From Methylococcales bacterium (GTDB lineage: Bacteria > Pseudomonadota > Gammaproteobacteria > JABHGC01), in contig JABHGC010000237.1 of NCBI GenBank assembly GCA_018672285.1, forward strand, positions 17,883-81,882: 64,000 nucleotides of DNA. The letters run 5' to 3'. The notes under the pieces were generated by a model. It was not told where the DNA came from, did no database searches, and saw only the letters and a list, made by a program, of their open reading frames with translations. Positions 27,405 through 50,352 of this stretch are shown here, one piece after another. Numbering within the stretch: the first letter of the stretch is position 1; every line of letters starts with the position of its first letter. Position numbers and translations under genes: made by a program.

Positions 27405-27621
27405 ACCAACCCCCGAGAGCTAACTGATTAATTGATTATCGGCAAGCCAGCCATGAACTTTAGAGTTAACCCCAGAAAGTTTGGGGTGGGTTAATCTGTT
27501 TATCTTGTTTTTACGCACCAAAATGAGGTGAAAATTTCTCTTTCCGTTCTGTTTTGGTGCAAGTTAAAGCTGTAAATATAGTCTATTGTTATATGAGACA
27601 AAAAATAATCAGGCTAATACT

Positions 27622-30600
27622 ATGCGTAAACTGTTTTATTCTCTTATTGCTTCGATGATTCTATTTATCCCTTTCGTTTTTGCAGCTGATGCACCTGATT
27701 TTGAAGCAAGACTGCAGGCAGTTGAGCAAACCCAAAATAACTTGAACCATGTTTGGACGATGATCGCGGCTTGCTTGGTTTTTTTTATGCAGGCAGGGTT
27801 TTTGTTTTTAGAAGCAGGCATGGTGCGCTCTAAAAATTCAATTAATGTCGCCCAGAAGAACATTGCAGACATCGTTATTTCAGCCGTTTGCTTTGGTGGT
27901 GTTGGGTTTATGTTGATGTTTGGTGATAGCCAAGGGGCATTCGGTTACCAATCTGACCTTCTGTTTTTTGACCAAGTAGAAGATTGGACATTTACCTTTT
28001 TTGTTTTCCAGGTGGTTTTTTGTGGCACGGCAGCCACCATCGTGTCTGGTGCGGTTGCAGAACGGATGCAATTTGTCGGGTACTTGTATACCACAGTCTT
28101 TATCGCGTTGATTGTGTACCCTCTATACGGTCATTGGGCTTGGGGGAACTTGTTGAATACAGACAATACTGCCTGGATTGCTGATTTAGGTTTTATCGAC
28201 TTTGCCGGGTCCACGGTGGTGCATTCTATTGGTGGCTGGGTGGCGTTAGCGGGTGTTGTTGTGTTGGGCGCAAGGATTGGCCGATTTGATGAAAAGACCG
28301 GTGAGGTTAAACGTTTAATAGGGCATAGCCCGGTCCTCGCAACCGTTGGTACCATTATTTTATGGATCGGTTGGATTGGCTTTAACGGCGGGTCTACGAC
28401 AGCGGGGACACCCCAATTTGCACATATTATTGCCAATACGGTGGTTGCCGGTGGTATTGGTGGGCTTGCAGGGTTAATCATTGGCAGAATAATGGATGGG
28501 TATTTTCGCCCGGACAGTTCCATCGTTGGCGTACTGGGTGGCTTAGTAGCCGTAACCGCAGGTTGCGATGTGCTATCGATGTGGGGCGCTGTGGTGATCG
28601 GGGCGAGTGGTGGCGCACTGTCAAATGTGATGGCGAAAGTCATGGTGACAAAGTGGAAGTTGGATGATGCGGTTGATGCGGTTGCCATTCATGGCTTTTC
28701 TGGCGCATGGGGTACCACTGTCATGGTGTTTTTAGTGCACCCTGAGAAATTAGAAATGGGGGTCTGGGCACAATTTGGCGTGCAATGTTTTGGTGTTTTT
28801 GTTGGCTTTGTTTGGGCATTTGGTCTGTCTTACGTGTTTTTCAAAATCTTGGATCGTGTTTTACCAGGTGGATTAAGGGTCACTAAAGAGCAAGAAAGGG
28901 AAGGGTTAAATGTATCAGAGCACGGGACTCAGCTCGGTACAGGAGAATTACTGAAAGGCATGATTGCACTCGCGGAGACCGGGGATTTTAATCAAGAGTT
29001 GGATGAAACCGCAGGGGATGAATCCGGGGAGCTGGCTATTGCCTTTAATCGCGTCGTGCTGTCAATGAGGCAACAAGATGAAGCAAGGGAGTTGGTGCAA
29101 AAGAAAAAGTTTTCACAGGAACGAGAGATTGCGATGGCCAGTACGCGGATAAAGCAGGCCTTAGATAATGTTTCGGCGAATGTGTTAGTGGCGGATGTCG
29201 GGCATAAAATTATTTATGCTAACCCTGCACTGCAAAACCTCTTTAAAGAGGTCGAGGGGGATTTGCACAAGGCCGTGCCAGATGTACGTGTCACCGAGAT
29301 TGAAGGTGTGCCTTTAGAGGTTTTGGCAACCAGCGATGCTTCTCCTTTTCATGCTGCACAGTTAGATTCTTTAGAGAGCGCTACCGGGACGGAAGTGGTT
29401 TATGGTAACAGTACGTTCGTTATTCAGGGCAACCCGGTCATGAATGAGCAACAGCAGCGAATTGGTTTTGTCTTTGAGTGGACAAATATCACTAAGGAGT
29501 TGGCTGTACAGCAAGAAATTGATGAGGTTGTTCAAGCCGCCAAACAAGGTGACTTTAATCATCGAATTCCGGTGGCAGAAAAACACGGCTTTATGCTCAG
29601 TCTTAGTGAGGGTATCAATCACGTGATTGATACATCAGCTGAAGGGTTGGATGAGGTCAAAGCGGTGTTGGCTGCCATTTCATCAGGGGATTTAAGCCGG
29701 CGTTTTGAAAAGGACTTTCCTGGCACTTTTGGTGAACTAAAAGAGTATTGTAACCATACGGTTGACTCTTTGAATGATGTGCTTGGGAGAATCTCTACCG
29801 TTGTAAAATCTGCCAATGCAGGGGATTTTAGCTCTGAAGTGTCCGTCAATGAACTATCAGGATACCAGGTTGAGATGGCCGAGAGCATTAATGCGCTTGT
29901 ATCGACAACGGCGACAGGTTTGTCTGAAGTTTCACAAGTCTTATCTGCAATTTCAAACGGTGATTTGTCTCAGAGAATAACGGTTGAATTACCTGGCACC
30001 TTTGGTGAACTCAGTGAGTATTGCAACCACACGGTAGATTCATTGCAAACCATTATAGGTCAGTTGGGGCGTGTTGTTGCTGCCGCAAATGAAGGGGATT
30101 TTGATGTAAGAGCAACGGTTGAAGGGTTGCAGGGTTATCAGAGTGAGGTCGGTGAGGGCATTAATCAATTGGTTGAAACCTGTAAACAAGGTTTGGATGA
30201 GGTGGTGATGGTACTCTCTGCGTTGTCCAAAGGGGATTTATCGACCACGATTACAGGGGATTATCAGGGCATATTTTTGCAGCTGAAAAACAGTGCAAAT
30301 GGCACCATTGCCCAATTGGTTTCGACCATTGACCAAATACACCAATCGTCTGATTTTGTTGCCGCTGTTGCTGACAATATTTCTTCTGCTAATAGTAACC
30401 TTAAGGAGAGAACAGAACAGCAAATACGCTTTTTAGGGAATACAAAAGATAATGTAAAACAGATGGTTGGGGTTGTTGATTTAAACATGAACCACTCCGA
30501 GGAGGCTCGAGACCTAGCGGGTAAGGCTCAATTGCAAGCGACTAAGGGTGGACAGGTTATGACCCTGGTTAAGACCTCAATGGAAGGGATAAAAGACAGT

Positions 30601-31098
30601 AGCGACCGTATTACTGATATTATTGAGGTCATTGATGGCATTGCATTTCAAACCAATTTATTAGCGCTCAATGCGTCGGTTGAAGCCGCTAGGGCAGGTG
30701 ATCAAGGCAAAGGTTTTGCGGTGGTTGCGACTGAAGTGCGTAATTTGGCATTGAGAAGTAAAACAGCCTCAAAAGAAATTGCGGATTTAATCAAAGAAAG
30801 TCGTGAAAATGTTGTTAATGGTGGGCGCCTGGTTGATGAGTTTGATCAGGTTCTAAATGGTATTATGCGGTCTGTGAATCAAGTGAATAAAATTAATTAT
30901 AGCGTTGCAGATGCCAGTAAAGAGCAACATAAAAGCATCAATGAAATGACGGAGCAGTTTGAGAAAATGGGGCAGACAACGGATGAGAATGCTTCTTTGG
31001 TAGGGCAAGTTGCCGTCAGTAGCAAAAAATTGGTGTCTAGTGCGATAACGTTGAGGGAGCAGATGGCCTTTTTTCAAATAGCGCCATCAGCAGTTTAA
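27622..31098 (+). CDS. ammonium transporter (Amt) fused to a tandem HAMP-like array and a methyl-accepting chemotaxis signalling domain
   Basis: ORF 27586..31098 (TTG); likely start ATG 27622 with signal peptide '[24 protein letters not shown]'. Amt signature '[14 protein letters not shown]...LGARIGRF'. Then about 5 repeated 50-aa modules ('GDFNHRIPV...', '[29 protein letters not shown]', '[29 protein letters not shown]', '[15 protein letters not shown]'). Then the MCP core '[34 protein letters not shown]'. Confidence 0.85.
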
Positions 31099-31173: not shown

Positions 31174-34099
31174 TTAATATGATCGCATCTGATCACACTG
31201 TAAGTTATCACCCGCAGCAACACCTAAGTTTTGCGTAATTGTTTGATAAAACCCAACCCGATCTTTGGTTTTGCCATTGTGAGGTTGGTTGCACTCTAAA
31301 CCGCCATTAATCACGTTGATGGTCATGCCAAAGCCAGGCAATCGTCCTGCATTAACGTCTTCACTGCTTGGGACCCACTTGCCCGTCATTACGTCATGGT
31401 TAGACGGTTTAGGAGATTGCGTGGTCATCCAGAACCAAATAGCCGATCGAAAAGACAATACGCCATCTGTTGTGAGTAATTGAGGGTTGCTCAATAAGTC
31501 AATATCTAGCATCTCGCCCATTAACCCGTAGTTATAGTTCCAGCTTAACTGCATCGGGCCTCGACCGTGATACGTGTTTCCTGAGCTACAAAATGCACCA
31601 TACTTGGCATTGGTTGAGTCACAGTAACCGGTGCAAGCACCACCCTCGCAGCCAACTTCCTCTTTAAAGTGTAAACCCCAAGTGTAACGTTGGTCACCGA
31701 TTTCATAACCCCCCCCAACCGCCGGTTGTTTCATGTGCAATGTTCGCTAAAAAAGCGGCTAATTCTTGCTTTCGTTGGCTGAGTGATCCTTCGGTTAAGA
31801 AGTTTTCATAGTAACCTGTGGCTTCTTTTAATGCACTGTAGCTAAATAATGCATTTCTATTGGGAAAAAGTGCGTTAAATTCAGACTCAGACATTAAATC
31901 AGAAAAGCCTGAGTTGTTGCCACCTGTTTGATTATCTTGGTTGTCGTCCGTATCTGTCTCATCCGGTGTGTCGTCAGTTGGTTCTGGCTCTGAGTTGTCT
32001 GTTCCTTCGTCAATGGGGTTGGTCACTTCGACTTGTGGTGTATGGCCTAAACCTTCGTTCATTGCATTAAGAATTCGGCCATTATCGGCATCGATTTCCC
32101 AAGAAAATAAACCCGCCAAACCTAAATCACGAACATACTGTCCTTTCGCTCTGGTTGAACGCTGGTTGTCATATGTGATCAATACGCCAGTGCTGCTATT
32201 AAACACATATGGGGCTTCTGCGGCTTCATCATAACCATAAGTAAAGCCGTTGATGCCTTGGCCGGTACTGCCTAAATAGTTGTTCTCAATATCTCGGTAA
32301 TCGAGTACACCAGCTTCCCAGGTGCCTTTTGCAGCGCCATGGCCAGTGCCTGTGAGCGGGTTGCCACCAGTCATATCTGTCACGCCTGTCCAGCCTCGGC
32401 CGTACATTGCGGTTCCTAATACGATTTTACCTGCAGGTACGCCGGCATCAATCATGCCTCGTACACCTTCGTCTGCACTGTACCCTTCAATTTTTGAATC
32501 TGCAGTGGGGTATAGTGCTGTTTGGTGACCCACGGTGCCATTCCATGCACCATAAAAATCATAGGTCATGGCAAAAAAGTAATCGACCGCTTCACTCGCT
32601 TGCACATAATTAACGTTGTCGATTTTACTTGGGCCAACACCAACCGCTGAGGTGAGTTGGTATTCTTTACCGGTTTCTTGCTCAAGGTCGTCTAGGGCTG
32701 CTCTTAACTCTGTCATTAAGTCTGCATAACCCTGTCGATCTTGTGATGAACCTTTGTTGGGGTTGGCACCTTCACCGCCTGGGAATTCCCAGTCAATATC
32801 GATGCCGCCAAAGAATTCATATTGTCGTAAAAAATCCATGCAAGAGGCGACAAAGGTCGCTCGTCTTGCTGGCACATTGGCAATATCAAAGAAGGGGTCA
32901 GAGAGCGTCCAGCCACCAATAGAAGGTAATATGGTGATGTCTGGGTTGGCTGCTTTTAACCGAGTCAATTGGCCAAAGTTACCACGAATGGGGTCATCCC
33001 ATTTGTCTCCAGGGTAAGATTTTTCTAAAGAGGCAAAGCGGTCAACGATGGTCACCGTATCATCTGCTTTACTGGCGCACTCGGCGTTAATGGCTGTTTG
33101 TGCACCGGCTAATGCCGAGTCATTGTCTCCACAAATGGCGATAAAGCCATACAGTAAGTGCGTTAGGTTTTGGGCTGGGATTTTATCAACAGGGTAGTTA
33201 CGACCATAAATGCCCCATTCAGCGAAATAGGTACCGACAATTTTCCCACTGGTGTTTTTATAAGGGACATTGAATTCGCCTAAATCTGTCGGTGTCGGTG
33301 CCGGTGCTGGGTCGACTTCAGGGTCTGGTGTCGGATCAGGATCGGGGGTTGGCTCTGGGTCTGGCGTTGGGGTGCTTGCAGAACCAATGTTGATACTGCG
33401 GCTTTCACTTAAGGTGCAGGAGTCGCCAGAGCACAATTCGATAACAAACGCGTGGTTGCCTTCATCTAGGTTGACGACGGTGCTGTCAGATTGTGCTTGT
33501 TGGCCATTGGTGGTTAGGTTTGCGCTGTGAATTCTGGTGCCGTTGTGTAAAAGTGCCCATGAATCACCATTGGTTCCCCACCACATATCCCATTTTACGG
33601 TTAATGCGCCTGCTTCAGCTGAATCGGGTAACCAGGCGATGGTTGGCTTGCTGGGTGCTAATGCGGGTGTGGTGTCAGGGGTATCATCTTCAACGGGGGT
33701 GTCTTCTGTTGGCGTATCTTCAACAGGGGTTTCAGGTTCTGCTGCATCACCTGCGACGACAATGCTTTTACGGTCTGTTTTACAGCCATCGCTATTACAC
33801 AGATCCACTTCTAATGTTTGTTCTCCAGGTACTAAAGCCACTTGACAGCTACTGCTTTGTGCTTGGTTACCATTCGGTGACAGTTGTCCTGAGCACACTG
33901 ACGCGCCATTTGAATACAGTGTCCAGTGGGTACCATTTTCTCCCCACCACATATTCCAGCTGACGGCGTGGTTGGCTGGTGCATCGAACTGGGTTGGCAT
34001 CCAGTCAATGTGAGGCTGGCCTGGAGCTGCTGTTGCTGTGGCATGGAATCCGCTTAATAAAGTGCCGATCAGGAGAGGAAGCATTTGAATCTTTGGCAT
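31174..34099 (-). pseudogene. secreted chitinase with two catalytic domains, GH18 (ChiA-like, two N-terminal ChiA_N-like domains) and C-terminal GH19, interrupted by a frameshift in a G8 tract
   Basis: The 798-aa ORF 31703..34099 has a signal peptide, two repeated ChiA N-terminal-like domains ('WNMWWGENGTHW', 'WDMWWGTNGDSW'), acidic Pro/Thr linkers, and a GH18 core with 'GGIDIDWEFPGG'. It ends '...[18 protein letters not shown]', which is the start of a GH19 domain. The GH19 domain continues in the overlapping ORF 31174..31740: '[14 protein letters not shown]', '[27 protein letters not shown]'. The frames switch within the C8/G8 run at 31709-31716; removing one G reads through as ...[23 protein letters not shown]... 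Confidence 0.8.
31709..31716 (-). repeat. G8 (C8 on + strand) homopolymer at the chitinase frameshift site
   Basis: Direct reading of the sequence 'cataaccccccccaacc'. Confidence 0.9.
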
Positions 34100-34373
34100 T
34101 GTGTGGCCCCTTTTAAAGTGTCTTGATGTCAGTGTCTTTATATTATTAATTTGGCATCCATTGGATGTCTGATGCGAATGATCGCAATTGTACGGGGGGC
34201 TGGGTATCCCATAAATAGGGGATTAAACGGATATTCAGTGGTTTATTGGTCGTTTTAGGGGCGAGTGGTCGTTTTTTATGGGCGAGCGGTGTAAAAACAT
34301 TTGTAAGAATAGGATTACATTGAAGAGTTGACGGATTTTCTGGCAATGATTGCGGTTATTGAACTCTGATCAA

Positions 34374-35456
34374 TTATTCAGTGCAATGTTTGGCAAAGGG
34401 CAGGTTGGCTAAGAAGTTAGGCTGAAGCGGTTGTTTGCTATGAGTTTGGGTGAACGTTTTGAAATCAATCAGCTTAAAAGCTGTGCTGGTGAGGTGTGGG
34501 GCGCAGCGTGGTAGGTTGTTGAGGGTCATGGGATACATTTGTAAAACAATCTGTGTGCCAAGTGATGGGGCGAAGTCAAACTGGTTGTAGTGATCGTATG
34601 CCAATAATAGGGCTATGCCACCCCCGATAAAGTGGCCGCCAACGGAGGCTGCTAATGTGCCTTGTTTAACCGCTTCAATCCCTTCATCCGACCAGTCCAC
34701 TCCCCCTATAATGATGGCTGATTTTTTCTGTTGTTGGCTGGTCGCTTTGGCTGCGCCTAAAGACAGGCTATCACTTGCCGCCCAAATGATATTGCATTGT
34801 GGGTAGCGTTTGAGCAGTACTTTGGTTTTTTTGTAACCTTCCTCTGCTGTCCAGCTATTCGATCGGGTGACTTGGTGTAGTATTGCGGACTGTTTAGCTG
34901 CTGCTTGTTCTAACCCTGACATTCGTAGTTTTGCTGTGGATGAGTTGAAAGAGCCATTCAGGCCGATGATGTTAGCTGTGCCGCCTGCTGGCAGTTGTTT
35001 GATTAAGGTTGTTGCGAGCAAAGCGCCAGCCTGATGATCATTCGGTGAAAGGTGTGCTAACCAGTATTTGAACTGACCTCTAGGTAGACCAAATTGGCTT
35101 TTCTCTTGTGCCAGTATGTCACTGTTAAAAATAATGGCCTGCGTTTGGGATTGCTCAGCAAGTTGTAAAATTTTAAGTCCTGTTCCTTTTAAATTGATAA
35201 ACAACAGGTAGTCGGGTTTATTGTTAAGGGCGGTTTCTGCCATTTTATAGTACTGAAAACGGTTGGTAATACCCGATTTTGGCATGTAATAAACCTGTAG
35301 GTTTATGCCTAATTGGTTGGCAGCTGCGCGCATGAACTGGGCGGTTTTTTCCCAAAATGGGTGACTGTCTGTTGCAGGGTTTAAGAACGCAATGTTGGGC
35401 TTAGCCCAAATCCCATTAGCAAAAAACAGGCAGAGAGTGAGCAGTAAAAACCTCAT
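34374..35456 (-). CDS. periplasmic binding protein, type-1 PBP fold (sugar-binding/LuxP/TorT-like), signal peptide
   Basis: 360 aa, signal peptide 'MRFLLLTLCLFFANGIWA', two-lobed PBP1-like pattern. Its start overlaps the upstream response regulator's stop in an ATGA overlap (35453-35456). Confidence 0.65.
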   Translation of the reverse strand: MRFLLLTLCLFFANGIWAKPNIAFLNPATDSHPFWEKTAQFMRAAANQLGINLQVYYMPKSGITNRFQYYKMAETALNNKPDYLLFINLKGTGLKILQLAEQSQTQAIIFNSDILAQEKSQFGLPRGQFKYWLAHLSPNDHQAGALLATTLIKQLPAGGTANIIGLNGSFNSSTAKLRMSGLEQAAAKQSAILHQVTRSNSWTAEEGYKKTKVLLKRYPQCNIIWAASDSLSLGAAKATSQQQKKSAIIIGGVDWSDEGIEAVKQGTLAASVGGHFIGGGIALLLAYDHYNQFDFAPSLGTQIVLQMYPMTLNNLPRCAPHLTSTAFKLIDFKTFTQTHSKQPLQPNFLANLPFAKHCTE

Positions 35457-36127
35457 GTAGTATCTTCACCTAAGTGAATAATGCCCAGTTGAACGGCTTC
35501 AAATACGGCCTCGCTCCGTGATTTTACGGACAGTTTTCGATATATTTTTTTTGCATGTGAGGTAATGGTATGTACCGAGTTACCCATGACAGATGCGGTT
35601 TCTTTGTAAGAAAATCCTTTGGCTATGTACTCTAAAACGAGCTTTTCTCGGGTGGTGATGTTGGGTACCTCAACGCCAGGTATGATGGGTACTTCAGGTA
35701 AGGGTATGCTAAACCGTTTTAAGACATGTCTTGCAATCGCGGGGCTGAGCGGAGAGTGCCCTGCGACTAATTGCAGCACAGAGTCGGCAATAGATTCATT
35801 GGTTGCATCTTTTAATAAATAACCTGTTGCACCGGCTTCTAGTGCATTCATGACATTTTTTTCATCGGCAAAAATGGTGATGACCATAATTTCTGTGGAG
35901 GCTGAGTGCTGATGTGCATTTTTAATGAGATCAATGCCCGTGCCATCTGGCAGGCCAATGTCTGTCAACAAAACGTCCGGGTAGGCCTGTTCAAACTGAG
36001 CTAATGCTTGTTTGCAATTGCCCACACTGGCGATCAATGAGAGCTGTTCATGCTGCTCAATGGCATGGGAAAGCCGTTTTCGGGTGGGTGGATCGTCTTC
36101 AACGAGCATGACGCGAATGGGAGGCAT
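35453..36127 (-). CDS. NarL/FixJ-family response regulator (REC plus LuxR-type HTH)
   Basis: 224 aa, 'VMLVEDDPPTR...LTDIGLPDGTG' receiver and C-terminal 'LTTREKLVLEYIAKGFSYKETA' LuxR HTH. Confidence 0.9.
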   Translation of the reverse strand: MPPIRVMLVEDDPPTRKRLSHAIEQHEQLSLIASVGNCKQALAQFEQAYPDVLLTDIGLPDGTGIDLIKNAHQHSASTEIMVITIFADEKNVMNALEAGATGYLLKDATNESIADSVLQLVAGHSPLSPAIARHVLKRFSIPLPEVPIIPGVEVPNITTREKLVLEYIAKGFSYKETASVMGNSVHTITSHAKKIYRKLSVKSRSEAVFEAVQLGIIHLGEDTT

Positions 36128-40740: not shown

Positions 40741-41388
40741 CTAGCTGTGGCCGTTGGTGATGTACCAATGTTGGGCAAAATAATACGCCACGCTGAGCAC
40801 TACGCCAACAACAATGGCATTGGTGTATTGACGATCTTTTATCCAGTAGTCCATGCTCACATACTTACCTGCGCCATAGAAGAATAAGGCGAACAGCATC
40901 ACCAGATAGGTTACGCCCAGTTCAATACCATTTTGAAGCATGTAAGGGCCTGACGTGTCGATACTGTAGAGTTGGTTGTACCAAATGGGGGCGTTACTTT
41001 CTAACCAGGTCATGAACCGGCCAAGGAGTTGTGCCGACTCTGTCGTGTCGGGTGCAATGGCATGCCAATGACCCCAGTGTACGGTGAATATAGCGACAAA
41101 CATTGTCACGATCAGTGGGATTGCAATCCATCTAACCGCGAAGCCTACTAATAATAATATGGCACCAATGACTTCGGTTGCGGTTGCTAAATAGGCCATT
41201 AACTCCGGGAACGGCAAGCCTAAACCATTTTTAAACTAGGTGACGATATGAGGGAAGTTATCTACTTTTTTTAAACCGGCCATTAAGAAAACAGGTACCA
41301 AGTATATTCTAATCGCCAATGGGGCGATAAAATCAAGCGATTTGGTTTTGTCTAGTAGTCGTTGTGCGCCTTCAAGAAGTCTCATCAT
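40741..41388 (-). pseudogene. DoxX-family membrane protein with an in-frame TAG stop at 41236..41238
   Basis: The ORF 40741..41217 lacks the N-terminal helix. The upstream in-frame 50 codons starting at ATG 41388 encode 'MMRLLEGAQRLLDKTKSLDFIAPLAIRIYLVPVFLMAGLKKVDNFPHIVT', then TAG, then 'FKNGLGLPFPELMAYLATATEVIGAILLLVGF...'. Together these make a complete DoxX fold. The gene is therefore interrupted, or mis-sequenced, or read through. Confidence 0.7.
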
Positions 41389-41492: not shown

Positions 41493-42332
41493 TTATTTAC
41501 TGTGCTGAGTTCCCAAAACAATGCCTTCGTTTTGCAGTTGTTGCAGAATTTCTAAGCCACCAGCGATAACGGCATCGGGGTTTGGGTGCTGCATTTCTTC
41601 AGCAATTTGGGATAGGGCTGCATGTCCTGTTAACTCAGGGTTATCTTGGAGAATGGCTAAAAGCCGATCAGAAATGGGGTTTACTTCCATAAAGCCCACG
41701 GTTTGATCGTCATTTTGCCTGCGAAAAATGACAATGCAGGTCACTTGATCACCCGGGGTGTCCGGTAAAAAATCTTCACTAATATGATGAACCGGAAAAT
41801 GGTAAGCCAGTCTTTTTAGTAGCGGGTTAAGTGCAATTTGGCTCGCGAGTAAATCACCTTCAGTGTCAACAGAGTCTAGGGTAATTTCTTCTTCTGAGAG
41901 GTAAATCTCCATTTCGACCCATTCATAATGTGCAAGCTCTACGAGAAAAGGCGGGTCGTTTGGGTTGTCGCGGCCTTCTTGTAAGTAGCGCACAAACTCT
42001 TGACCAAAAACAGGGAATATAGGGGTGTGGCAACGGAAATTGCTGACAAAGTCCCGAACCATTGCATGCCACTCCTCAGCGGAGGTGATGTCATGGATGA
42101 CGGGGAAATTGTGAGCTAATAAATCCTCGATATTGTTATATACCACGCGCTGGTAAGCATTCATTCTGCGGGCTTCAATCCCCTCAGGGAGTGGCTTGTT
42201 TGCAGGGTCACGAATACAGTCGGTAAACTCAAACTGCTTTTGCATGAAAAGGGGGAGATCAGCTCGCGATGGCAGTGTGTTGTTCATCCTTGCTCCATTT
42301 TTTTTGTAATTTGGCAATATGGTTGACTTCAC
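41493..42332 (-). CDS. DUF2063-family protein (MbnC/BufC/HvfC-like partner of MNIO enzymes)
   Basis: 279-aa ORF with the DUF2063 N-terminal pattern ('FTDCIRDP...RMNAYQRVVYNNIEDLLAHNFPV...FVRYL'). The true start is probably the internal Met 'MNNTLPS', giving a 29-nt overlap with the upstream DUF692 gene. Confidence 0.8.
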   Translation of the reverse strand: MKSTILPNYKKNGARMNNTLPSRADLPLFMQKQFEFTDCIRDPANKPLPEGIEARRMNAYQRVVYNNIEDLLAHNFPVIHDITSAEEWHAMVRDFVSNFRCHTPIFPVFGQEFVRYLQEGRDNPNDPPFLVELAHYEWVEMEIYLSEEEITLDSVDTEGDLLASQIALNPLLKRLAYHFPVHHISEDFLPDTPGDQVTCIVIFRRQNDDQTVGFMEVNPISDRLLAILQDNPELTGHAALSQIAEEMQHPNPDAVIAGGLEILQQLQNEGIVLGTQHSK

Positions 42333-43110
42333 CTAAAAGCTCGTCCATTTCAGGGATGTCGTTATCTCGCTCTACCATGGTCGGCACAACGCCATATAGC
42401 TCGTATGTTTTTTCAAGTAATGCCCAAACACTGGGGAGTACTGCCGCGCCATGGGTATCAATCAGCAGGTCTTCTGCTTCTTTATAGTGGCCTGCAACGT
42501 GAATGTAACTGACGCGGTCGCCTGGCATGGCATTGATGAACTCGATGGCATCGTAACTATGGTTTTTGCTGTTCACATACACGTTATTAACGTCCAGCAG
42601 CATTTTGCAATCGGCTTCGCTGACAACGGCGTTAATAAATTCAATTTCAGACATTTCGCTATAAGGTTGTGCGTAATAGGAGGCATTTTCTATGGAAATG
42701 GTCATCTCCATCATATCTTGAACTTGGCGAATTCGGCTGGCAACGTGCTTGACAGATTCTTCAGTAAAAGGGATTGGCAGTAGGTCGTATAAATGACCGT
42801 CATCACTGCAAAAAGACAAATGCTCTGAGTAATGTAAAATATTGTGCTCATGAAAAAGTTTTTTGATCTCTTTAACAAGCAGGCTATCTATTGGTGTTGG
42901 TCCACCAAGTGATAGTGATAAGCCGTGAGCTATAAAAGGGTAACGCTCCGTAAAGTATCTAAAGTCTTTTCCTCGCTTGCCGCCAACGCCGATCCAGTTT
43001 TCAGGGGCGATTTCAAAAAAATCAATTTGGCTAGGAGGGGTTTCTTTAAAAGGGTCAATGAACTCTCGTTTAAAGCCGAGTCCTGCGCCACTTACGGGAA
43101 GTGAAGTCAT
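42259..43110 (-). CDS. DUF692/UPF0276 TIM-barrel protein, i.e. MNIO (multinuclear non-heme iron oxidative) enzyme, MbnB/BufB/HvfB-like
   Basis: 283 aa: 'GLGFKREFIDP...FFEIAPENW...YPFIAHGLSLSLGG...YSEHLSFC...DLLPIPFTEESVKHVASRIRQVQDMMEMTISIENASYY' matches the DUF692 core. Confidence 0.85.
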   Translation of the reverse strand: MTSLPVSGAGLGFKREFIDPFKETPPSQIDFFEIAPENWIGVGGKRGKDFRYFTERYPFIAHGLSLSLGGPTPIDSLLVKEIKKLFHEHNILHYSEHLSFCSDDGHLYDLLPIPFTEESVKHVASRIRQVQDMMEMTISIENASYYAQPYSEMSEIEFINAVVSEADCKMLLDVNNVYVNSKNHSYDAIEFINAMPGDRVSYIHVAGHYKEAEDLLIDTHGAAVLPSVWALLEKTYELYGVVPTMVERDNDIPEMDELLGEVNHIAKLQKKWSKDEQHTAIAS

Positions 43111-43189: not shown

Positions 43190-43621
43190 TTATTTTTTAG
43201 AGCCACAAGAACCTGCACCGCAAGAACCTGTTTTACCTTTGTCGCCACAAGAGCCCGCTTTGCCTTTGTCGCCACAAGAACCGGCTTTAGCTTTGTCGCC
43301 ACAAGATGCCGCTTTTCCTTTGTCTCCACAAGAGCCCGCTTTCGCTTTGTCACCACAAGATGCAGCTTTGCCTTTATCGCCACAAGAGCCCGCTTTTGCT
43401 TTATCACCACAAGATGCTGCTTTTGCTTTGTCGCCACAAGATGCAGCTTTACCTTTGTCGCCGCAAGAACCTGCGCCGCAACTACCGTTACCAGCTACTT
43501 TGTAGCCATCTGCTAAAGGTGATACTGCAAATGGGTTGCTATCGGCAGAAACTGAAGTCATTGCTACTGATGATACGAATGCTGCGCCGATTGCTACTGA
43601 TAAAGTTTTTTTGTTAGACAT
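43190..43621 (-). CDS. Sec-secreted repetitive Cys/Lys/Gly-rich precursor peptide, 12 x 'SCG', 9-aa repeats SCGDK(G/A)KA(A/G); candidate RiPP (bufferin/HvfA-like) substrate
   Basis: 143 aa. Signal peptide 'MSNKKTLSVAIGAAFVSSVAMTSVSA', then 'DSNPFAVSPLADGYKVAGNG', then SCGAGSCGDKGKAASCGDKAKAASCGDKAKAGSCGDKGKAASCGDKAKAGSCGDKGKAASCGDKAKAGSCGDKGKAGSCGDKGKTGSCGAGSCGSKK. RBS GGAG upstream. First gene of the operon. Confidence 0.75.
   Translation of the reverse strand: MSNKKTLSVAIGAAFVSSVAMTSVSADSNPFAVSPLADGYKVAGNGSCGAGSCGDKGKAASCGDKAKAASCGDKAKAGSCGDKGKAASCGDKAKAGSCGDKGKAASCGDKAKAGSCGDKGKAGSCGDKGKTGSCGAGSCGSKK
43199..43480 (-). repeat. tandem 27-nt coding repeats, about 10 units, encoding the SCGDKxKAx motif
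   Basis: Visible as reiterated 'tcgccacaaga(g/t)cc(c/g)gctt(t/c)(t/g)cctttg' units. They generate three spurious overlapping ORFs on both strands (43186..43437, 43239..43505, 43306..43617). Confidence 0.85.
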
Positions 43622-44040: not shown

Positions 44041-47000
44041 GTGCAAACTGTGCGATCAAAAAAACTGAAACAGACGATAAAGTCCGTGCTTGGGGCGCGT
44101 TGGGTTATTCCTGTAACGCTCGTAACATTGCCTCAAGCTTCAAATGCTGAGCTAACGGGCGAGAGTATTATCTCTGGTAGTGCGATCTTCTCAAGGCCCG
44201 ATGCTAACACTACGATTATTACTCAATCCTCCGACAAGCTGATCATTAATTTCGACAGCTTTTCGATTGGCAGTAATGAAACGGTTCGTTTTATTCAACC
44301 CAGTGCTTCGTCCATTGCGCTTAACCGAGTGCTAGGTGGTAGTGCCAGTAACATTTTGGGTCAACTCTCAGCCAATGGCAGCATTTTTCTGGTGAACGCC
44401 GGTGGTATCTTCATTGCACCCACAGCGGCAATAGATGTCTCCAGTGTTATCGCCACAACTCTCGATATTGCCAACCAAGATTTTCTCAATAACACCTTTC
44501 AATTCTCCAAAGTCGCAGGATCCAGTTTCGGTAAAGTTATCAGCGAAGGTGAGATCAGTGTTGCCGATGGTGGTTATGTTGTACTCGCCGGGGACTATGT
44601 AGAGAACAGCGGTATTATCCAGGCCAAGCTAGGGGACGTAGCGCTAGCCTCAGGCAACCGAATTTCACTCGATTTAAGTGGTGATGGACTGATTCAATTT
44701 GCCGTTGACCAAGCGGCGGTAGATGCGTTAGCAGGCGTGAATAACGTCGGTCAAATCACAGCCAATGGCGGTAACGTCGTAATGACCGCCAAGGTGGCCA
44801 ATGACCTAGCTTCCACCGTGGTACAAAACAGCGGCATCATTAGTGCAGAAAGCATTGCTGAAGTGAATGGAGAAATTTTCCTCTCAGGCTCAGGCGGGGA
44901 CGTGATTAATGAAGGTCAATTGGTTGCCAGCAGTACAGAAACCCATGGTGGAACGGTCATTGTTCAATCGGACAGCACGACCTTAGTCGAAGGCAGTGGT
45001 TCAATTGATGTCAGCTCAGTGAATGGTACCGGTGGGCAAGTACAAGTTTTAGGCGAACGAGTTGGTTTATTCGACCAAGCCAATATATCAGCCTCAGGCG
45101 CATTAGGTGGTGGTGAAGTGTTGATCGGTGGCGACCAAGCCGGTCTTAATCCAGATATTCAGAATGCCAAGCGCACAGCGATTACCTCAGAGATCACAAT
45201 CACAGCGGATGCTATACAAAGCGGTAATGGCGGCAAAGTGATTGTGTGGGCGGATGAGAATACCCATTTTGAAGGTAATATCAGCGTTAAAGGTGGGCAA
45301 CAATCTGGTGATGGTGGCTTTGTAGAGGTCTCGGGTAAACAGAATTTATTCTTTGATGGCACTGTCAATACTTTTGCAACGAATGGTCAACAAGGGACGT
45401 TATTGTTGGATCCATTAGATATAACCATTGTAGATGGTGCGGGTGGTGCAAATGATGCAGAGCTTGCTGATGACAGTATTTTGTTTGCTGATGGTGGTGC
45501 CGTTACCTTTACCATTGCCGAGCAAACACTGGAAGCGGTTACGGGTAATGTCATTTTACAAGCTGATAATTCCATCACGGTGAATGACTTAACGGATAAT
45601 ACGTTAGATTTTATTGGTCTCACAAGTGGTAATACCATCGTTTTTCAAGCCGGTGGTAATATCTTTTTTGCTGGAGCCGATGATACGCTGGATACGAACA
45701 ATGCTGATCTTCACATTGAAGGTAGCTCGGTTCATGGTACAACAGGTACAGCAAATACATCACCTAGATCCGTTTTTTCGGGTACAGGTGATATGACCTT
45801 TTTAGGCTTTCAAATTTTTTCAGATGGTGGCACCTTTACAGGGAACAATATTAATTTTGGTGCGGGTACCACAGCCGGTGCGGCTGGAAACTTTGTAGGC
45901 GGTGTTGCTGCGTTAAGTGAGAATATCATTATTTCTGGCGCGACCACCATTAATGCCAGTGGTACCGTTAATTTTGACGTGAATAACAGTTTTCAGTTAT
46001 CTGCACCTCTGACGGTAATCGCTGTTGGTGATATCAATGTCAATGGCCTGATTGTTGATAGTGTAGGGGGCGGCGCAAGTTCACCTTTACTGATGGCATC
46101 AACGACAGGCAGTATTACGATTAGTGCTGACATGCAGTCATCTAATGGAAATGCATTTGCCTTAGATGCCGCCAATAATCTTACAGTACAATTTATTAAG
46201 TCAGGTGGTACTCCAGCGGCCTTTACATCTAATTTAGACGCGGGTGGTTTGCTGAATGTTAATGCGTTTAATGCCGTGGGTGGTAGCTTGGATGCGCTCA
46301 GTGGCGGATTATTAACCATTAATAGCGCTCTGGTGACGAATGGCGGTAATGTTAGTTTGAATTCTGGTGGTGGCATATTACTCAATACAGGTTTCGATAC
46401 GGGGGGTGGTTTTTTTACTGCAAACTCAACGAATAATAATATTACTTTTACAGCTGCAAACAGTGATACGGGGGGGGGCGGAACATTCAGCGCAACCGCG
46501 ACGGGTACTGGCTCGATTAGTATTCCTGCTGGTGCCAACATCAGCACCAATAACGGCAGTTTTTCAGCAGTCGCAAATATTGGTGATGTATCGATTAGTG
46601 GTTTGACCAATGCAGGCACCGGTAATATTACCGTTGCGACCACGACCGGGGATCTATTTTTACTGGGCGGATTAAGCACTTCTGGTGGTTTTATTGATAT
46701 CGATATTGTTAATAGTGGTGATATTACCGTGGGTAACACCAATACCACGGGTGGCGGTGTGTTTGACTCGCGGATTGCGAATACTGGCAATATTTTATTT
46801 CAGTCTGGTACAGGTATCGCCACCAGTGGCGGCAATATACTCGCGCTCCAGCTTGGCTCTGGTAATGTGACTAACGATGGTACACTAAATGCATTAGCGG
46901 GTGGCGTACAGCTTGCAACAACGGCAGGAACCGTGACTTCAAGCAGTACAGTTAATGCGGGGGATTTTACCGCAACAGCACAAACCTTAGTCGACTTGCA

Positions 47001-50000
47001 AGCGGGCTTCACATCTAACGGCACAACAACGATCATAACTGCATCTACTGGTAATGTGATTCTTGCGGGTGGTGTCACCTTCACCAATGCCGGGGGTAAT
47101 AACGTCACCATTAATGCTGTGACCGATATTGATATTAATGCCAGCTTTACCACCACAGGTAGCGGCCCTATTGATTTTACTGCAACAAACACGGGTGGAA
47201 CGGCTTCGGTCGAGACACTAACCCTTAGTACCGGCACATTGCTTAATACTAATGGAGGTTCGGTCAATTTATCTGAAACAGGCAGTGGCGATTTAAGAGT
47301 AACGGGTGTTGGTGTGAGTACAGTCGCAGGTGCGTTTACAGCATCAACAGTTGCAGGGCTGATAACCAATGACACCACGATTGAGACAAGTAATGGAGGC
47401 GGTGGTGGCCTACTAACATTGTCCTCGACGGGGGTTGGAGCAATCACCTCTACTGGTTTTTTACAGGGCGGTGGCATTGTGGTCTCAAATGCTGGGAATG
47501 TATTGATTTCGAATAATATCAGTCAGGCGAATGATATTAGTGTCAGTGGCAGTAATGTTGTTTTAAGTGGCTTTACGACCGATGGAAATGCCACCATTAG
47601 TGCAACAGATCAAGTTACTTTAAGCAATGCTTACCAGTTTAATAATGGTGCAGTGAAAACATTCGCCACAAACGCAACTAACACCGTGAGTTTTGCTGCA
47701 GGGGCTAATATTTTAGCAAGCGGTTCACCGTTAAATTTTTCAGTTAATAGTACAAATGGCGATGTGCAGCTAAATGGTACTAGCATTAACTTAGCAACAG
47801 GAACATTAAGTATCACCTCGGGTGCATTAGTTGATATTAACTCTGCCCTAAGTAATTTGGGTGGTTTGTCTGCTGTTGCCGCTTCAGATATTAGCTTGAA
47901 CAGTAATGTGACGACCAGTGCTGGTAATATCGATTTGACGGTGACAGGTGCTGCCAATATCAATGTGGGTACTTCGAGTATAGATACGGCAGGGGGTACA
48001 CTAACCCTATCATCTGCAGGGGGCTTGAATGTTAATTCCAGCCTATCGGTAACGAATGCAGGGTTAACGACGTTGCAACTGACAGGTAATACCGATGCCG
48101 ACAGCCTCGTGAATCTAGGTACAATTAATACCAATGCTGGTGATTTGCTGCTGAAAACAAATACGGGTAATCAATCAGTCACATTGGGTGCACTGAGTGG
48201 TAATAATCTGACTTTATTTTCAAATGTAATGACTTTTTCAGGTGGTGCAAACTCAATTAGTGGCACAGGGATATTAGATATTAAGCCACGTTTTACAGCA
48301 GCAAATGCAACCATTGATATCGGCACTGTTGCTGGCGGAACAGGCAAACTGGTGGTGGATACCGCGGCACTCGCTGATGGATTTAGTAGCATTACTATCG
48401 GTCTCTCGGACGGTGATACAGCTGTAAAGCTTGGTGATGCAACCTTTAATGACCCAACTTTGATACGTGCGCCACTGGGTGCTGGTAGTATTACGGTTAA
48501 CGGTACCATTACGCTGAATAATAATGGCAATGTTGATTTTCAAACGGTAGGCCCAACATTAATTTTGGGTGGCTCGCTCACCTCTGCTGGCACCGATATT
48601 ACCATAACGGATGATTTGCAGATCAATGCGCCATTTACCTTTAGTTCAGGGGTTGGTGCTGGGAATATCAGCTTAAGTACCATCGATACCGCAGGCACAC
48701 CTATAGCATTAACCTTTGAGGCCGGTACAGGGAATGTCGTTGTGGGTAATGTGGGTGCGAGTATTCAACCTGACTCCTTTACCGTGACCAGTGCGAATAC
48801 GGTGACAGCGCAACAAATTAATACATCGGGTGATGTTAATATCAATGCTTCAACGATTAATTTGCAAGGCGTAGTGATTGCGGCGGGCAACTTTACTGCT
48901 TCTGGCAATATCAATTTATCCTCCAGCGTCACTGCTGACCTAGGGATTACGCAATCAGCAGGATCATTAGCCGTGTCAGGTTCACTAACACTCACCTCAA
49001 ATGGTGCTGGTACGTCGGGTATATCTTTAAATGATATTGATGGCGCCGGGAGTTTGAATTTATTGTCACTCGGGCCTGCACAAGTCGGTATCGTTGGCGG
49101 AACAACACAATTGACGTCGTTTTTTACCGATGTTGCCGGCAGTATTACGACAGGTAGTATTTCAACTCAAGGAAGTGCCACATTAATAAGTGATGTGGAC
49201 ATTAATATCGCATCATCTATCACCTCTCAGGGTGGTAACGTCATCATTGAAAGCCTGGGGGGAGTGAACCAAAGTGCAGGAACGGTGCAGTCAGTCAATG
49301 GTGGCGTGAGGGTTGCAGGTTCTAATGTTTTGTTATCGGGTAACGTGATAGGTGGTAGCAATACCTTTAGTAACGCTTCAGGAATAGGTGCTATTTTAAT
49401 TGAAAGCACATCTGCACTGACGGTGAATAATCTGACAGCCAATGCGGCTGATAACTTGAATATTGTCCTGGATGCAACAGACATCACGATTAATGGTTTT
49501 GTGGCCAGTAATGGTGACACGATTTTGGTGGCGACGAATGATGTGAATGTGAACCAGTCGGTCAGAATTTCCGCAAATTCAAATAGCTCAGTTGAGGGCA
49601 GTGTGCTGATCCAGGCAGACAGCGATGCCAATGGCGTGGGCAGCCTTAACGCAATATCAGGCTCTGAAATTAAAGGGTTTGACATAACTATCTCGGCAGC
49701 TGAAGTGAATACGACAGGGTCAACAGTACTTGCGTTGTCAGGTTCCCCCACGATTACGTTGACTGCCGCTCCACAAGACCCAGCTGCGGACGCCGCTGCT
49801 GCTGCAGCGGAAGATGCTGCGACAGATGCCGTTGCGACCACAACAACGGATACAACCACAACAACAACGACAACAACCAGTACGGGTGGTGGCTTTGATA
49901 ATACCGCTAGTGCGCCAGCGCCTGATACAGCGGCAGAGACTGGGACGACTACAACAACGGATACCGCAACCGGAGATACAAGTACAGCGACGACATCTGA

Positions 50001-50352
50001 TGGCGGGGCAGACACGGGAACAACAGACGGCGCGACAGCGGATAGTGGCACAGCTGCACCAGCAGACGACACGGCGACAACAGAACCTGCAGCAGATTCA
50101 GGCACAGAAGCACCCGCAGAAGAAACCGCAGCAACAGCAGATGAGCCAGCAAAAGCAGACGCCGATGCCACTCCTGAAGAAGCGGTTGCAGAAGAAGGGG
50201 GAGCCGAGGAAGAAGCAGTAGCAGAAGAAGGTACCGAAGAGACGAAAGAAGACGTTGTAGCGGCCACGGAAGAAGAAGCGCCTCTAGAAGAGCAGCCGCT
50301 GATTGCGGTTGCTGATGCGGGAGATGGTAGTGGTCAGGCCTGCACGCCTTAG
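44041..50352 (+). CDS. TpsA-type large exoprotein (filamentous-haemagglutinin-like, TPS secretion domain plus beta-helical repeats plus acidic Thr/Ala-rich tail)
   Basis: 2103 aa, GTG start. Extended signal peptide, TPS domain 'NFDSFSIGSNETVRFIQPSASSIALNRVLGGSASNILGQLSANGSIFLVNAGGIFI', a long Gly/Thr/Asn/Ser-rich repetitive body, and a C-terminal acidic low-complexity region ending 'EEQPLIAVADAGDGSGQACTP'. Confidence 0.8.
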   Translation: MQTVRSKKLKQTIKSVLGARWVIPVTLVTLPQASNAELTGESIISGSAIFSRPDANTTIITQSSDKLIINFDSFSIGSNETVRFIQPSASSIALNRVLGGSASNILGQLSANGSIFLVNAGGIFIAPTAAIDVSSVIATTLDIANQDFLNNTFQFSKVAGSSFGKVISEGEISVADGGYVVLAGDYVENSGIIQAKLGDVALASGNRISLDLSGDGLIQFAVDQAAVDALAGVNNVGQITANGGNVVMTAKVANDLASTVVQNSGIISAESIAEVNGEIFLSGSGGDVINEGQLVASSTETHGGTVIVQSDSTTLVEGSGSIDVSSVNGTGGQVQVLGERVGLFDQANISASGALGGGEVLIGGDQAGLNPDIQNAKRTAITSEITITADAIQSGNGGKVIVWADENTHFEGNISVKGGQQSGDGGFVEVSGKQNLFFDGTVNTFATNGQQGTLLLDPLDITIVDGAGGANDAELADDSILFADGGAVTFTIAEQTLEAVTGNVILQADNSITVNDLTDNTLDFIGLTSGNTIVFQAGGNIFFAGADDTLDTNNADLHIEGSSVHGTTGTANTSPRSVFSGTGDMTFLGFQIFSDGGTFTGNNINFGAGTTAGAAGNFVGGVAALSENIIISGATTINASGTVNFDVNNSFQLSAPLTVIAVGDINVNGLIVDSVGGGASSPLLMASTTGSITISADMQSSNGNAFALDAANNLTVQFIKSGGTPAAFTSNLDAGGLLNVNAFNAVGGSLDALSGGLLTINSALVTNGGNVSLNSGGGILLNTGFDTGGGFFTANSTNNNITFTAANSDTGGGGTFSATATGTGSISIPAGANISTNNGSFSAVANIGDVSISGLTNAGTGNITVATTTGDLFLLGGLSTSGGFIDIDIVNSGDITVGNTNTTGGGVFDSRIANTGNILFQSGTGIATSGGNILALQLGSGNVTNDGTLNALAGGVQLATTAGTVTSSSTVNAGDFTATAQTLVDLQAGFTSNGTTTIITASTGNVILAGGVTFTNAGGNNVTINAVTDIDINASFTTTGSGPIDFTATNTGGTASVETLTLSTGTLLNTNGGSVNLSETGSGDLRVTGVGVSTVAGAFTASTVAGLITNDTTIETSNGGGGGLLTLSSTGVGAITSTGFLQGGGIVVSNAGNVLISNNISQANDISVSGSNVVLSGFTTDGNATISATDQVTLSNAYQFNNGAVKTFATNATNTVSFAAGANILASGSPLNFSVNSTNGDVQLNGTSINLATGTLSITSGALVDINSALSNLGGLSAVAASDISLNSNVTTSAGNIDLTVTGAANINVGTSSIDTAGGTLTLSSAGGLNVNSSLSVTNAGLTTLQLTGNTDADSLVNLGTINTNAGDLLLKTNTGNQSVTLGALSGNNLTLFSNVMTFSGGANSISGTGILDIKPRFTAANATIDIGTVAGGTGKLVVDTAALADGFSSITIGLSDGDTAVKLGDATFNDPTLIRAPLGAGSITVNGTITLNNNGNVDFQTVGPTLILGGSLTSAGTDITITDDLQINAPFTFSSGVGAGNISLSTIDTAGTPIALTFEAGTGNVVVGNVGASIQPDSFTVTSANTVTAQQINTSGDVNINASTINLQGVVIAAGNFTASGNINLSSSVTADLGITQSAGSLAVSGSLTLTSNGAGTSGISLNDIDGAGSLNLLSLGPAQVGIVGGTTQLTSFFTDVAGSITTGSISTQGSATLISDVDINIASSITSQGGNVIIESLGGVNQSAGTVQSVNGGVRVAGSNVLLSGNVIGGSNTFSNASGIGAILIESTSALTVNNLTANAADNLNIVLDATDITINGFVASNGDTILVATNDVNVNQSVRISANSNSSVEGSVLIQADSDANGVGSLNAISGSEIKGFDITISAAEVNTTGSTVLALSGSPTITLTAAPQDPAADAAAAAAEDAATDAVATTTTDTTTTTTTTTSTGGGFDNTASAPAPDTAAETGTTTTTDTATGDTSTATTSDGGADTGTTDGATADSGTAAPADDTATTEPAADSGTEAPAEETAATADEPAKADADATPEEAVAEEGGAEEEAVAEEGTEETKEDVVAATEEEAPLEEQPLIAVADAGDGSGQACTP
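46470..46478 (+). repeat. G9 homopolymer inside TpsA-1 (in frame as sequenced)
   Basis: 'gatacgggggggggcgg' encodes TGGGG. Confidence 0.9.

Follow-up and report, generated by a model that had tools for sequence, protein, structure and literature searches.

A one-base frameshift at a G8 run in the GH19 domain of a two-family chitinase gene from a Methylococcales population

Genes that join a retaining chitinase of glycoside hydrolase family 18 (GH18) to an inverting chitinase of family 19 (GH19) are rare but known from genome annotation, mostly that of marine Gammaproteobacteria. Annotated cases are those of Zooshikella ganghwensis and Z. harenae (854 amino acids, aa) as well as the metagenomic proteins P0003, P0004, P0009, P0010 and P0035, and one such protein each is mentioned in Endozoicomonadaceae (PMC10576748) and in a scan across CAZy and M5nr (PMC6626019). 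In the literature we found such mentions at the level of annotation only, and no biochemical characterisation of a natural GH18+GH19 fusion. Here we describe a further case, a chitinase gene at positions 31174-34099 of a 64,000-nucleotide stretch of a Methylococcales bacterium (contig JABHGC010000237.1; the whole stretch is hereafter termed the window), in which the reading frame is broken within the GH19 domain by a run of eight G (G8). On balance, we believe that the run probably represents a recent and fixed loss-of-function indel, through which the GH19 module was lost and a GH18-only chitinase was left. An initial annotation of the window, made from the sequence alone, had described the locus as a large secreted chitinase with both catalytic domains in one polypeptide, and had called dual-family chitinases uncommon. 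The latter agrees with our data, as both domains are found in 11 of the 120 homolog clusters listed; the architecture has however already been annotated elsewhere and is hence not new.

Domain content and the frame break

The interval 31174-34099, as delimited by the initial annotation, is filled exactly by two overlapping open reading frames (ORFs) on the minus strand, ORF1 at 31703-34099 and ORF2 at 31174-31740, the latter comprising 188 aa if read from a TTG start. ORF1 holds a predicted signal peptide, two ChiA_N modules, the GH18 domain and then the first ~62 residues of GH19. The signal peptide and the acidic Pro/Thr/Asp linkers described initially are visible in the sequence, and a Sec signal peptide at the N terminus of ORF1 is plausible, being a prediction. 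Congruent with the two tandem ChiA_N domains that had been proposed, Pfam recovers two ChitinaseA_N (PF08329) stretches in ORF1 (E=5.6e-19, 69 bits against a cut-off of 21.2). The GH18 domain is equally clear, with PF00704 matching aa 290-672 at 268 bits against a cut-off of 29.6 (E=1.4e-79). The SxGG motif is kept as SIGGW at 32909-32923 (aa 393), and GGIDIDWE at 32786-32809 includes the DIDWE motif noted initially, with the catalytic D-x-D-x-E and its proton-donor Glu intact (IDIDWE, aa 433-438). The full DxxDxDxE signature is absent, since residue 431 is Gly (codon GGC, 32807-32809) in place of the first Asp; Asp occupies this position in 118 of 118 homologs, including the ortholog P0002.

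The GH19 domain is divided between the two ORFs. The PF00182 profile is matched at positions 21-68 by ORF1 (E=5e-7) and at positions 66-232 by ORF2 (E=8.5e-59). At the junction, which reads ...CAT GAA ACA ACC GGC GGT TGG GGG GGG TTA TGA, the G8 run moves the frame by +1, leaving 177 GH19 codons in the other frame. A complete GH19 catalytic domain in a single frame is obtained only if one G is deleted: G7 in place of G8 would give back a continuous ORF of 974 aa, in which positions 21-232 of the 232-position profile are matched with E=3.4e-70. Thus, when the profile search proposed with the initial annotation is run on the repaired translation, GH18 and GH19 are both detected. The notion of one polypeptide does not stand, as the two domains do not share a frame under standard decoding, and the break at G8 is found in every assembly examined, 15 in number.

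The position of the break is telling. We take Glu790 of HETTGG to be the GH19 general acid, the counterpart of Glu67 of barley chitinase, and Glu814 of FKEE to be the general base, equivalent to barley Glu89. The frame changes six codons past the former, and alignment to solved GH19 structures places Glu790 in frame 0 (ORF1) and Glu814 in frame +1 (ORF2), with the catalytic pair on separate chains. Because the two residues sit in different frames, active GH19 would not be made. ORF2 is devoid of a signal peptide, of the general-acid Glu and of an obvious ribosome-binding site before its ATG, and the locus is accordingly expected to yield a secreted GH18 chitinase with a GH19 stub. Standard reading of G8 would end two codons on, yielding a predicted secreted protein of 798 aa with GH18 followed by a non-functional GH19 stub of 62 residues, and full-length protein would presumably arise at most in traces, when the G run happens to slip spontaneously.

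We also considered, and dismissed, that ORF2 is translated on its own or that the two halves of a split enzyme complement each other, as ORF2 lacks ribosome-binding site, signal peptide and general-acid Glu. The frameshift itself had been noticed in the initial annotation, which referred to a frameshift-repaired translation, but it was handled there as an error to mend, although it recurs reproducibly in the DNA. Caution is warranted here, as silent repair of the frame would annotate an enzyme that the organism probably does not make.

Next, the repaired GH19 domain was compared with solved structures. Over ~225 residues it matches 8X2W (4e-76), 3CQL (1.6e-67) and 2BAA (1e-64), and more weakly the loopless Streptomyces and class IV types (1e-32 to 1e-39), with Streptomyces ChiC (1WVU) reaching 1e-36 only. 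These matches assign the module to the plant-like 'loopful' class I/II chitinases. Of the 'plant/actinobacterial-type' label given initially, the first half consequently holds and the second does not, and of the GH19 motifs listed, HETTGG and others are present, but the proposed FWFWM reads IWFWM. The closest relatives, ~58-64% identical, are standalone proteins of ~300 aa from Myxococcota (Polyangium, Nannocystis) and Cyanobacteria (Nodosilinea, Nostocaceae); none is actinobacterial, and P0002 is the sole gammaproteobacterial one. A protein-guided scan of metagenome contigs and contigs of GTDB genomes returned relatives of at most 60% identity (Myxococcota, Bacteroidota, Cyanobacteria). Horizontal acquisition of the module would be compatible with its relatives in Myxococcota and Cyanobacteria.

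An additional peculiarity resides in this domain. In 119 other GH19 homologs, HETTGGW.. is invariably followed by Ala-Pro; in its place the window protein has Tyr-Glu and P0002 has Tyr-Asp (repaired residues 798-799, window ~31703-31708), right at the site of the later frameshift. This replacement marks the fused GH19 lineage.

The G8 run across assemblies and its possible origins

Both broken products, of 798 and 186 aa, occur as exact matches in NCBI, JGI, ENA and Logan assemblies, with the ORF2 protein MBT7445168.1 read on 16 contigs, whereas the repaired protein of 974 aa has no exact match among ~15 billion sequences. The length of the tract is alike in 13 of 13 fetched contigs, which stem from various samples and assemblers (MEGAHIT, SPAdes-style, Logan, JGI and an NCBI metagenome-assembled genome). 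These contigs were retrieved via the broken products and thus form a biased sample, and more were fetched via the flanking binding-protein and GGDEF genes, a selection blind to the frame; all three that span the junction are split alike. At the level of the consensus, each of the 15 assemblies has G8 at the chitinase tract. Identity to the window is 99.93-100% in all contigs, which represent one near-clonal population.

Homopolymer runs are error-prone, coverage is only ~2.5-3x in some of the contigs, and deletion of one base gives a complete and well-conserved ORF, all of which would suit a sequencing or assembly artefact that conceals a true G7 gene and an intact dual-domain enzyme. We consider this extremely unlikely, because the same G8 recurs in contigs of all the assembly types above and from several samples, because the contigs retrieved via flanking genes are split too, and because the longer G runs of the window, G9 at 46470 and G10 at 52541, are in frame inside very long ORFs. 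The latter, together with the lack of any other split-looking gene in the 64-kb window, also argues against a general error mode. In one contig (L012, ERZ4200985, ~2.5x coverage) the junction has G9 and then TATG, where G8 and TTATG would be expected. This T-to-G substitution adjoins the run, leaves the length unchanged and is probably a low-coverage read error.

A search with a junction-spanning peptide returned only the broken ORF2 above 64% identity; P0002 was unexpectedly missing from the resulting list, so this search was not exhaustive. Taken together, the exact-protein, homolog-cluster and junction-peptide searches suggest that no intact allele is on record. In the JGI metagenome collection, an exact DNA pattern with G6-G10 permitted had no match, and the collection consequently yielded no unbiased allele count.

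The ortholog P0002, a protein of 936 aa from a hydrothermal-vent metagenome with 67% identity, is uninterrupted. Its junction DNA, GGC TGG GGC AGT TAT, contains no G run and has the length that the one-G repair would give in the window; the frameshift site is therefore lineage-specific. We propose that the common ancestor of the window and P0002 lineages would have gained a C-terminal, plant-like inverting GH19 behind its retaining GH18, and that a G7 run within GH19 has probably gained one G subsequently in the near-clonal marine 'Methylococcales' population sampled here. The segment past the shift is the best-conserved part of the protein, being 79.7% identical to P0002 as compared with 76.7% for GH18. 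As a rough estimate, and provided that the domain has gone out of use, the lesion would be younger than ~2% neutral divergence. A selection test on the out-of-frame part, by the ratio of nonsynonymous to synonymous substitutions or by single-nucleotide polymorphisms, was dropped, as the contigs are nearly identical and ORF2-based retrieval forces the differences to be synonymous.

Several observations weigh against a loss of function. The 177 codons past the shift are undecayed, without stops or indels, and at 90 GH19 columns with a conservation of 95% or more in 119 homologs the window protein has no private changes: it deviates at four, and P0002 deviates at the same four. Such a lack of decay fits a very young lesion, and equally continued use of the domain. 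Moreover, slippage on G tracts is active in this population, for at 52541-52550 the window has G10 and three other assemblies (L185, L186 and L189) have G8; hence the chitinase tract could be reversible. At the run itself, tRNA-Gly would re-pair perfectly one base downstream, leading to ...GGWGGYEIG and the length of the ortholog. Finally, in the thymidine kinase of herpesvirus, where a G7 run has likewise gained a G, low-level frameshifting partly compensates the lesion, as described by Atkins et al. (PMC5009743).

The variable tract bears on the idea that G8 is a phase-variable contingency locus, altered by slipped-strand mispairing at replication and with G8 as the OFF and G7 as the ON state of the GH19 module. 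The population would then alternate between two enzymes, one with GH18 only and one with both GH18 and GH19, and GH18 would be expressed throughout. Phase variation classically acts on homopolymeric poly-G and poly-C tracts in genes for exposed proteins (PMC3711429). Three G tracts of at least eight occur in the window, all in genes for secreted proteins, and such tracts are mildly over-represented (6 overlapping matches against 1.25 expected, with 1 of 100 shuffles reaching 6). At 52541, G10 keeps a TpsA-like ORF of 1412 aa intact (50507-54745, plus strand), and G8 splits it into 690 and 734 aa; apart from this difference, the 15.9 kb of DNA compared contain no indel and are 99.98% identical. 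It looks like phase variation of a two-partner-secretion (TPS) exoprotein, or possibly an error in a long G run. The undecayed GH19 region would also be in keeping with a switch at the chitinase. A slip-capable intragenic tract is indeed present there and length polymorphism does occur elsewhere in the population; the chitinase tract however shows no length variant in the 15 assemblies, including ones whose TpsA-like tract differs from the window. Analogously, the G9 tract at 46470 is stable, no intact allele is on record, and the ortholog has no tract, so that the site is not conserved. Eight G are near the short end of the tract lengths at which switching is efficient, which likewise counts against the idea. 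Phase variation at this tract consequently appears unlikely to us, though not negligibly so.

The tracts at 46470 and 52541 lie in tandem giant genes on the plus strand, at 44041-50352 (2103 aa) and 50507-54745, each with its own N-terminal TPS domain, by which the possibility that they form one split gene was ruled out. The G9 of the 2103-aa gene (46470-46478) is in frame and has the same length in both other assemblies that cover it (L177 and L185).

A related notion, that G8 acts as a reversible switch which adds or removes only the C-terminal GH19 module while GH18 is kept expressed, by DNA slippage with or without low-level slippage of RNA or ribosomes, we similarly hold to be doubtful. 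If true, a free-living marine bacterium would use phase variation to alter a carbohydrate-active enzyme at the level of its modules, and the chitinase tract would join a small poly-G contingency set with the two genes for TpsA-like exoproteins, of which one occurs in ON and OFF forms. Irrespective of the chitinase, the same near-clonal population apparently has a poly-G tract that switches another secreted-protein gene on and off, opening the prospect that environmental, non-pathogenic bacteria use homopolymer switches to change modules of their extracellular enzymes.

Recoding could instead reconcile the broken frame with the undecayed domain. Here, a fixed fraction of ribosomes would shift +1 on GGG-GGG, or RNA polymerase would drop one G, resulting in two isoforms, the GH18-only protein and the full GH18+GH19 protein. 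The re-pairing of tRNA-Gly, the 0-frame stop only two codons beyond the run and the viral precedent on a G7+1 run are congruent with this. The G run is itself Shine-Dalgarno-like, but unspecifically so, and a small AACC-GGC-GGUU hairpin lies 5' of it, outside the minimum-energy fold; folding of 131 nucleotides around the site revealed no stimulatory RNA structure (z=0.23 against shuffles). Known sites of efficient transcriptional slippage are mostly A/T runs (see also PMC3711429). The lesion is limited to a single lineage, and P0002 has a continuous ORF and no run. GeneTack requires a conserved frameshift site before a frameshift is called programmed (PMC3711429), and with P0002 as the single ortholog no conserved shift-prone site is found; by these criteria the chitinase frameshift classes as a singleton indel. 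We therefore judge recoding to be very unlikely, and return to a fixed loss of the GH19 module, with the shift presumably uncompensated, as the probable state of this gene.

Gene neighbourhood and feature coordinates

The neighbours of the chitinase gene are as described initially, namely an Amt-MCP fusion, a periplasmic binding protein and a NarL-type two-component system (Table 1), and a CheX-like gene is also present in the neighbourhood. The fusion protein joins a complete ammonium transporter to HAMP repeats and an MCP signalling domain, an unusual architecture, and could be an ammonium-sensing chemoreceptor. A regulatory link of these neighbours to the chitinase, or one via sensing of chitin or ammonium, is putative. 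The adjacency of the Amt-MCP gene is not conserved: P0002 is followed downstream by a toxin-antitoxin pair and thiC, and on its upstream side the contig breaks off. Farther away, a DUF692/HvfC-like pair is accompanied by an ORF of 143 aa that matches no family and by a DoxX gene (small ORFs at 43190-43621 and 40741-41217), a group that resembles a metal-binding or modified-peptide cassette.

Table 1. Features of the chitinase locus and its surroundings, in window coordinates
Feature	Position	Strand	Remarks
ORF1	31703-34099	-	798 aa; product of standard decoding; exact protein MBT7445169.1, 'chitinase [Methylococcales bacterium]'
ORF2	31174-31734	-	+1 frame; 186 aa from ATG; exact protein MBT7445168.1
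Predicted Sec signal peptide, aa 1-24	34028-34099	-	MPKIQMLPLLIGTLLSGFHATATA/AP cleavage; read from sequence
ChiA N-terminal-like module 1, aa 25-117	33749-34027	-	bounds from self-similarity with module 2
ChiA N-terminal-like module 2, aa 148-238	33386-33658	-	best PF08329 stretch aa 162-238
Acidic Pro/Thr/Asp linkers flanking ChiA_N module 2	33659-33748 and 33254-33385	-	sequence
GH18 catalytic domain, aa 290-672	32084-33232	-	PF00704
Acidic linker 3, aa 690-735, between GH18 and GH19	31895-32032	-	sequence
GH19 N-terminal part, frame 0	31717-31858	-	PF00182 positions 21-68; includes HETTGG at 31718-31735
G8 run (C8 on the plus strand), frame-break site	31709-31716	-	sequence
UGA stop of ORF1	31703-31705	-	two codons past the G run; sequence
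FKEE with Glu814	31651-31668	-	in ORF2
Further GH19 motif, 14 aa	31525-31566	-	in ORF2
IWFWM	31426-31440	-	in ORF2
AAGGGG, Shine-Dalgarno-like	34107-34112	-	7 nucleotides 5' of the ORF1 ATG; sequence
Sigma-70-like match, weak	34142-34171	-	consensus scan; matches no commoner than in shuffles
Amt-HAMP-MCP fusion	27586-31098	+	1170 aa; convergent with the chitinase; ammonium transporter TIGR00836, 350 bits, above cut-off
RbsB/AlsB-like periplasmic binding protein	34374-35456	-	upstream of the chitinase, same strand
NarL-type response regulator	35453-36127	-	upstream of the chitinase, same strand
NarQ/UhpB-type kinase	37188-38636		matches the NarL-type regulator
MbnB/TglH/ChrH-family (DUF692) gene overlapping an HvfC-like gene	41493-43110	-	

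Comparison with known chitinases and other G-run systems

Among the annotated GH18+GH19 proteins, the others resemble the window gene in that a retaining GH18 and an inverting GH19 are encoded in one gene. Their GH19 is however of a different subfamily, 33% identical to that of the window, with an SQETGGH motif and a C-terminal extension, and P0035 has GH19 placed before GH18. As the subfamily differs and the domain order varies, these fusions appear to have arisen independently and more than once. None of them is frameshifted, and P0002 is the only protein that shares the exact architecture of the window. An intact fusion of this type would represent a natural template for enzymes that join the retaining and inverting chitinase mechanisms, and P0002 still offers one.

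With regard to its N-terminal two-thirds, the window protein is comparable to ChiA-type GH18 chitinases such as Serratia marcescens ChiA, sharing PF08329 modules, PF00704 with SxGG and D-x-D-x-E, and a predicted secretion signal, and many ChiA-like proteins of Gammaproteobacteria show 44-54% identity to it. Compared with this type it has two ChiA_N modules, long acidic linkers, Gly for the first Asp and a broken C-terminal GH19. Methylococcales is an order known for methanotrophy; chitinases of the ChiA type recur in metagenome-assembled genomes labelled Methylococcales or Methyloprofundus (P0008 and MBT7445169.1), and the window takes its own taxonomic label from the name of the NCBI genome. 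The C-terminal portion is instead akin to plant class I/II 'loopful' GH19, represented by barley 2BAA, papaya 3CQL and the reconstructed ancestral 8X2W, with matches across the full domain (E from 1e-64 to 4e-76) and with HETTGG, the second Glu, a motif of 13 residues and the WFW motif in common. It differs from plant-type and standalone GH19 in being fused behind GH18, in the replaced Ala-Pro and in the frameshift between the catalytic Glu residues.

As for the frameshift, mutants of herpes simplex thymidine kinase have undergone the same G7-to-G8 event, with a +1 change of frame and truncation, and some active product remains (PMC5009743). They differ in their eukaryotic translation system and in drug selection, and compensation is documented there but would be hypothetical for the chitinase. 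Bacterial poly-G/poly-C contingency loci, on the other hand, are matched by the intragenic G8 in a gene for a secreted protein and by the length-variable tract in a neighbouring gene. The chitinase locus is set apart from these by the constant length of its own tract, and a switch here would remove a C-terminal module rather than silence the gene.

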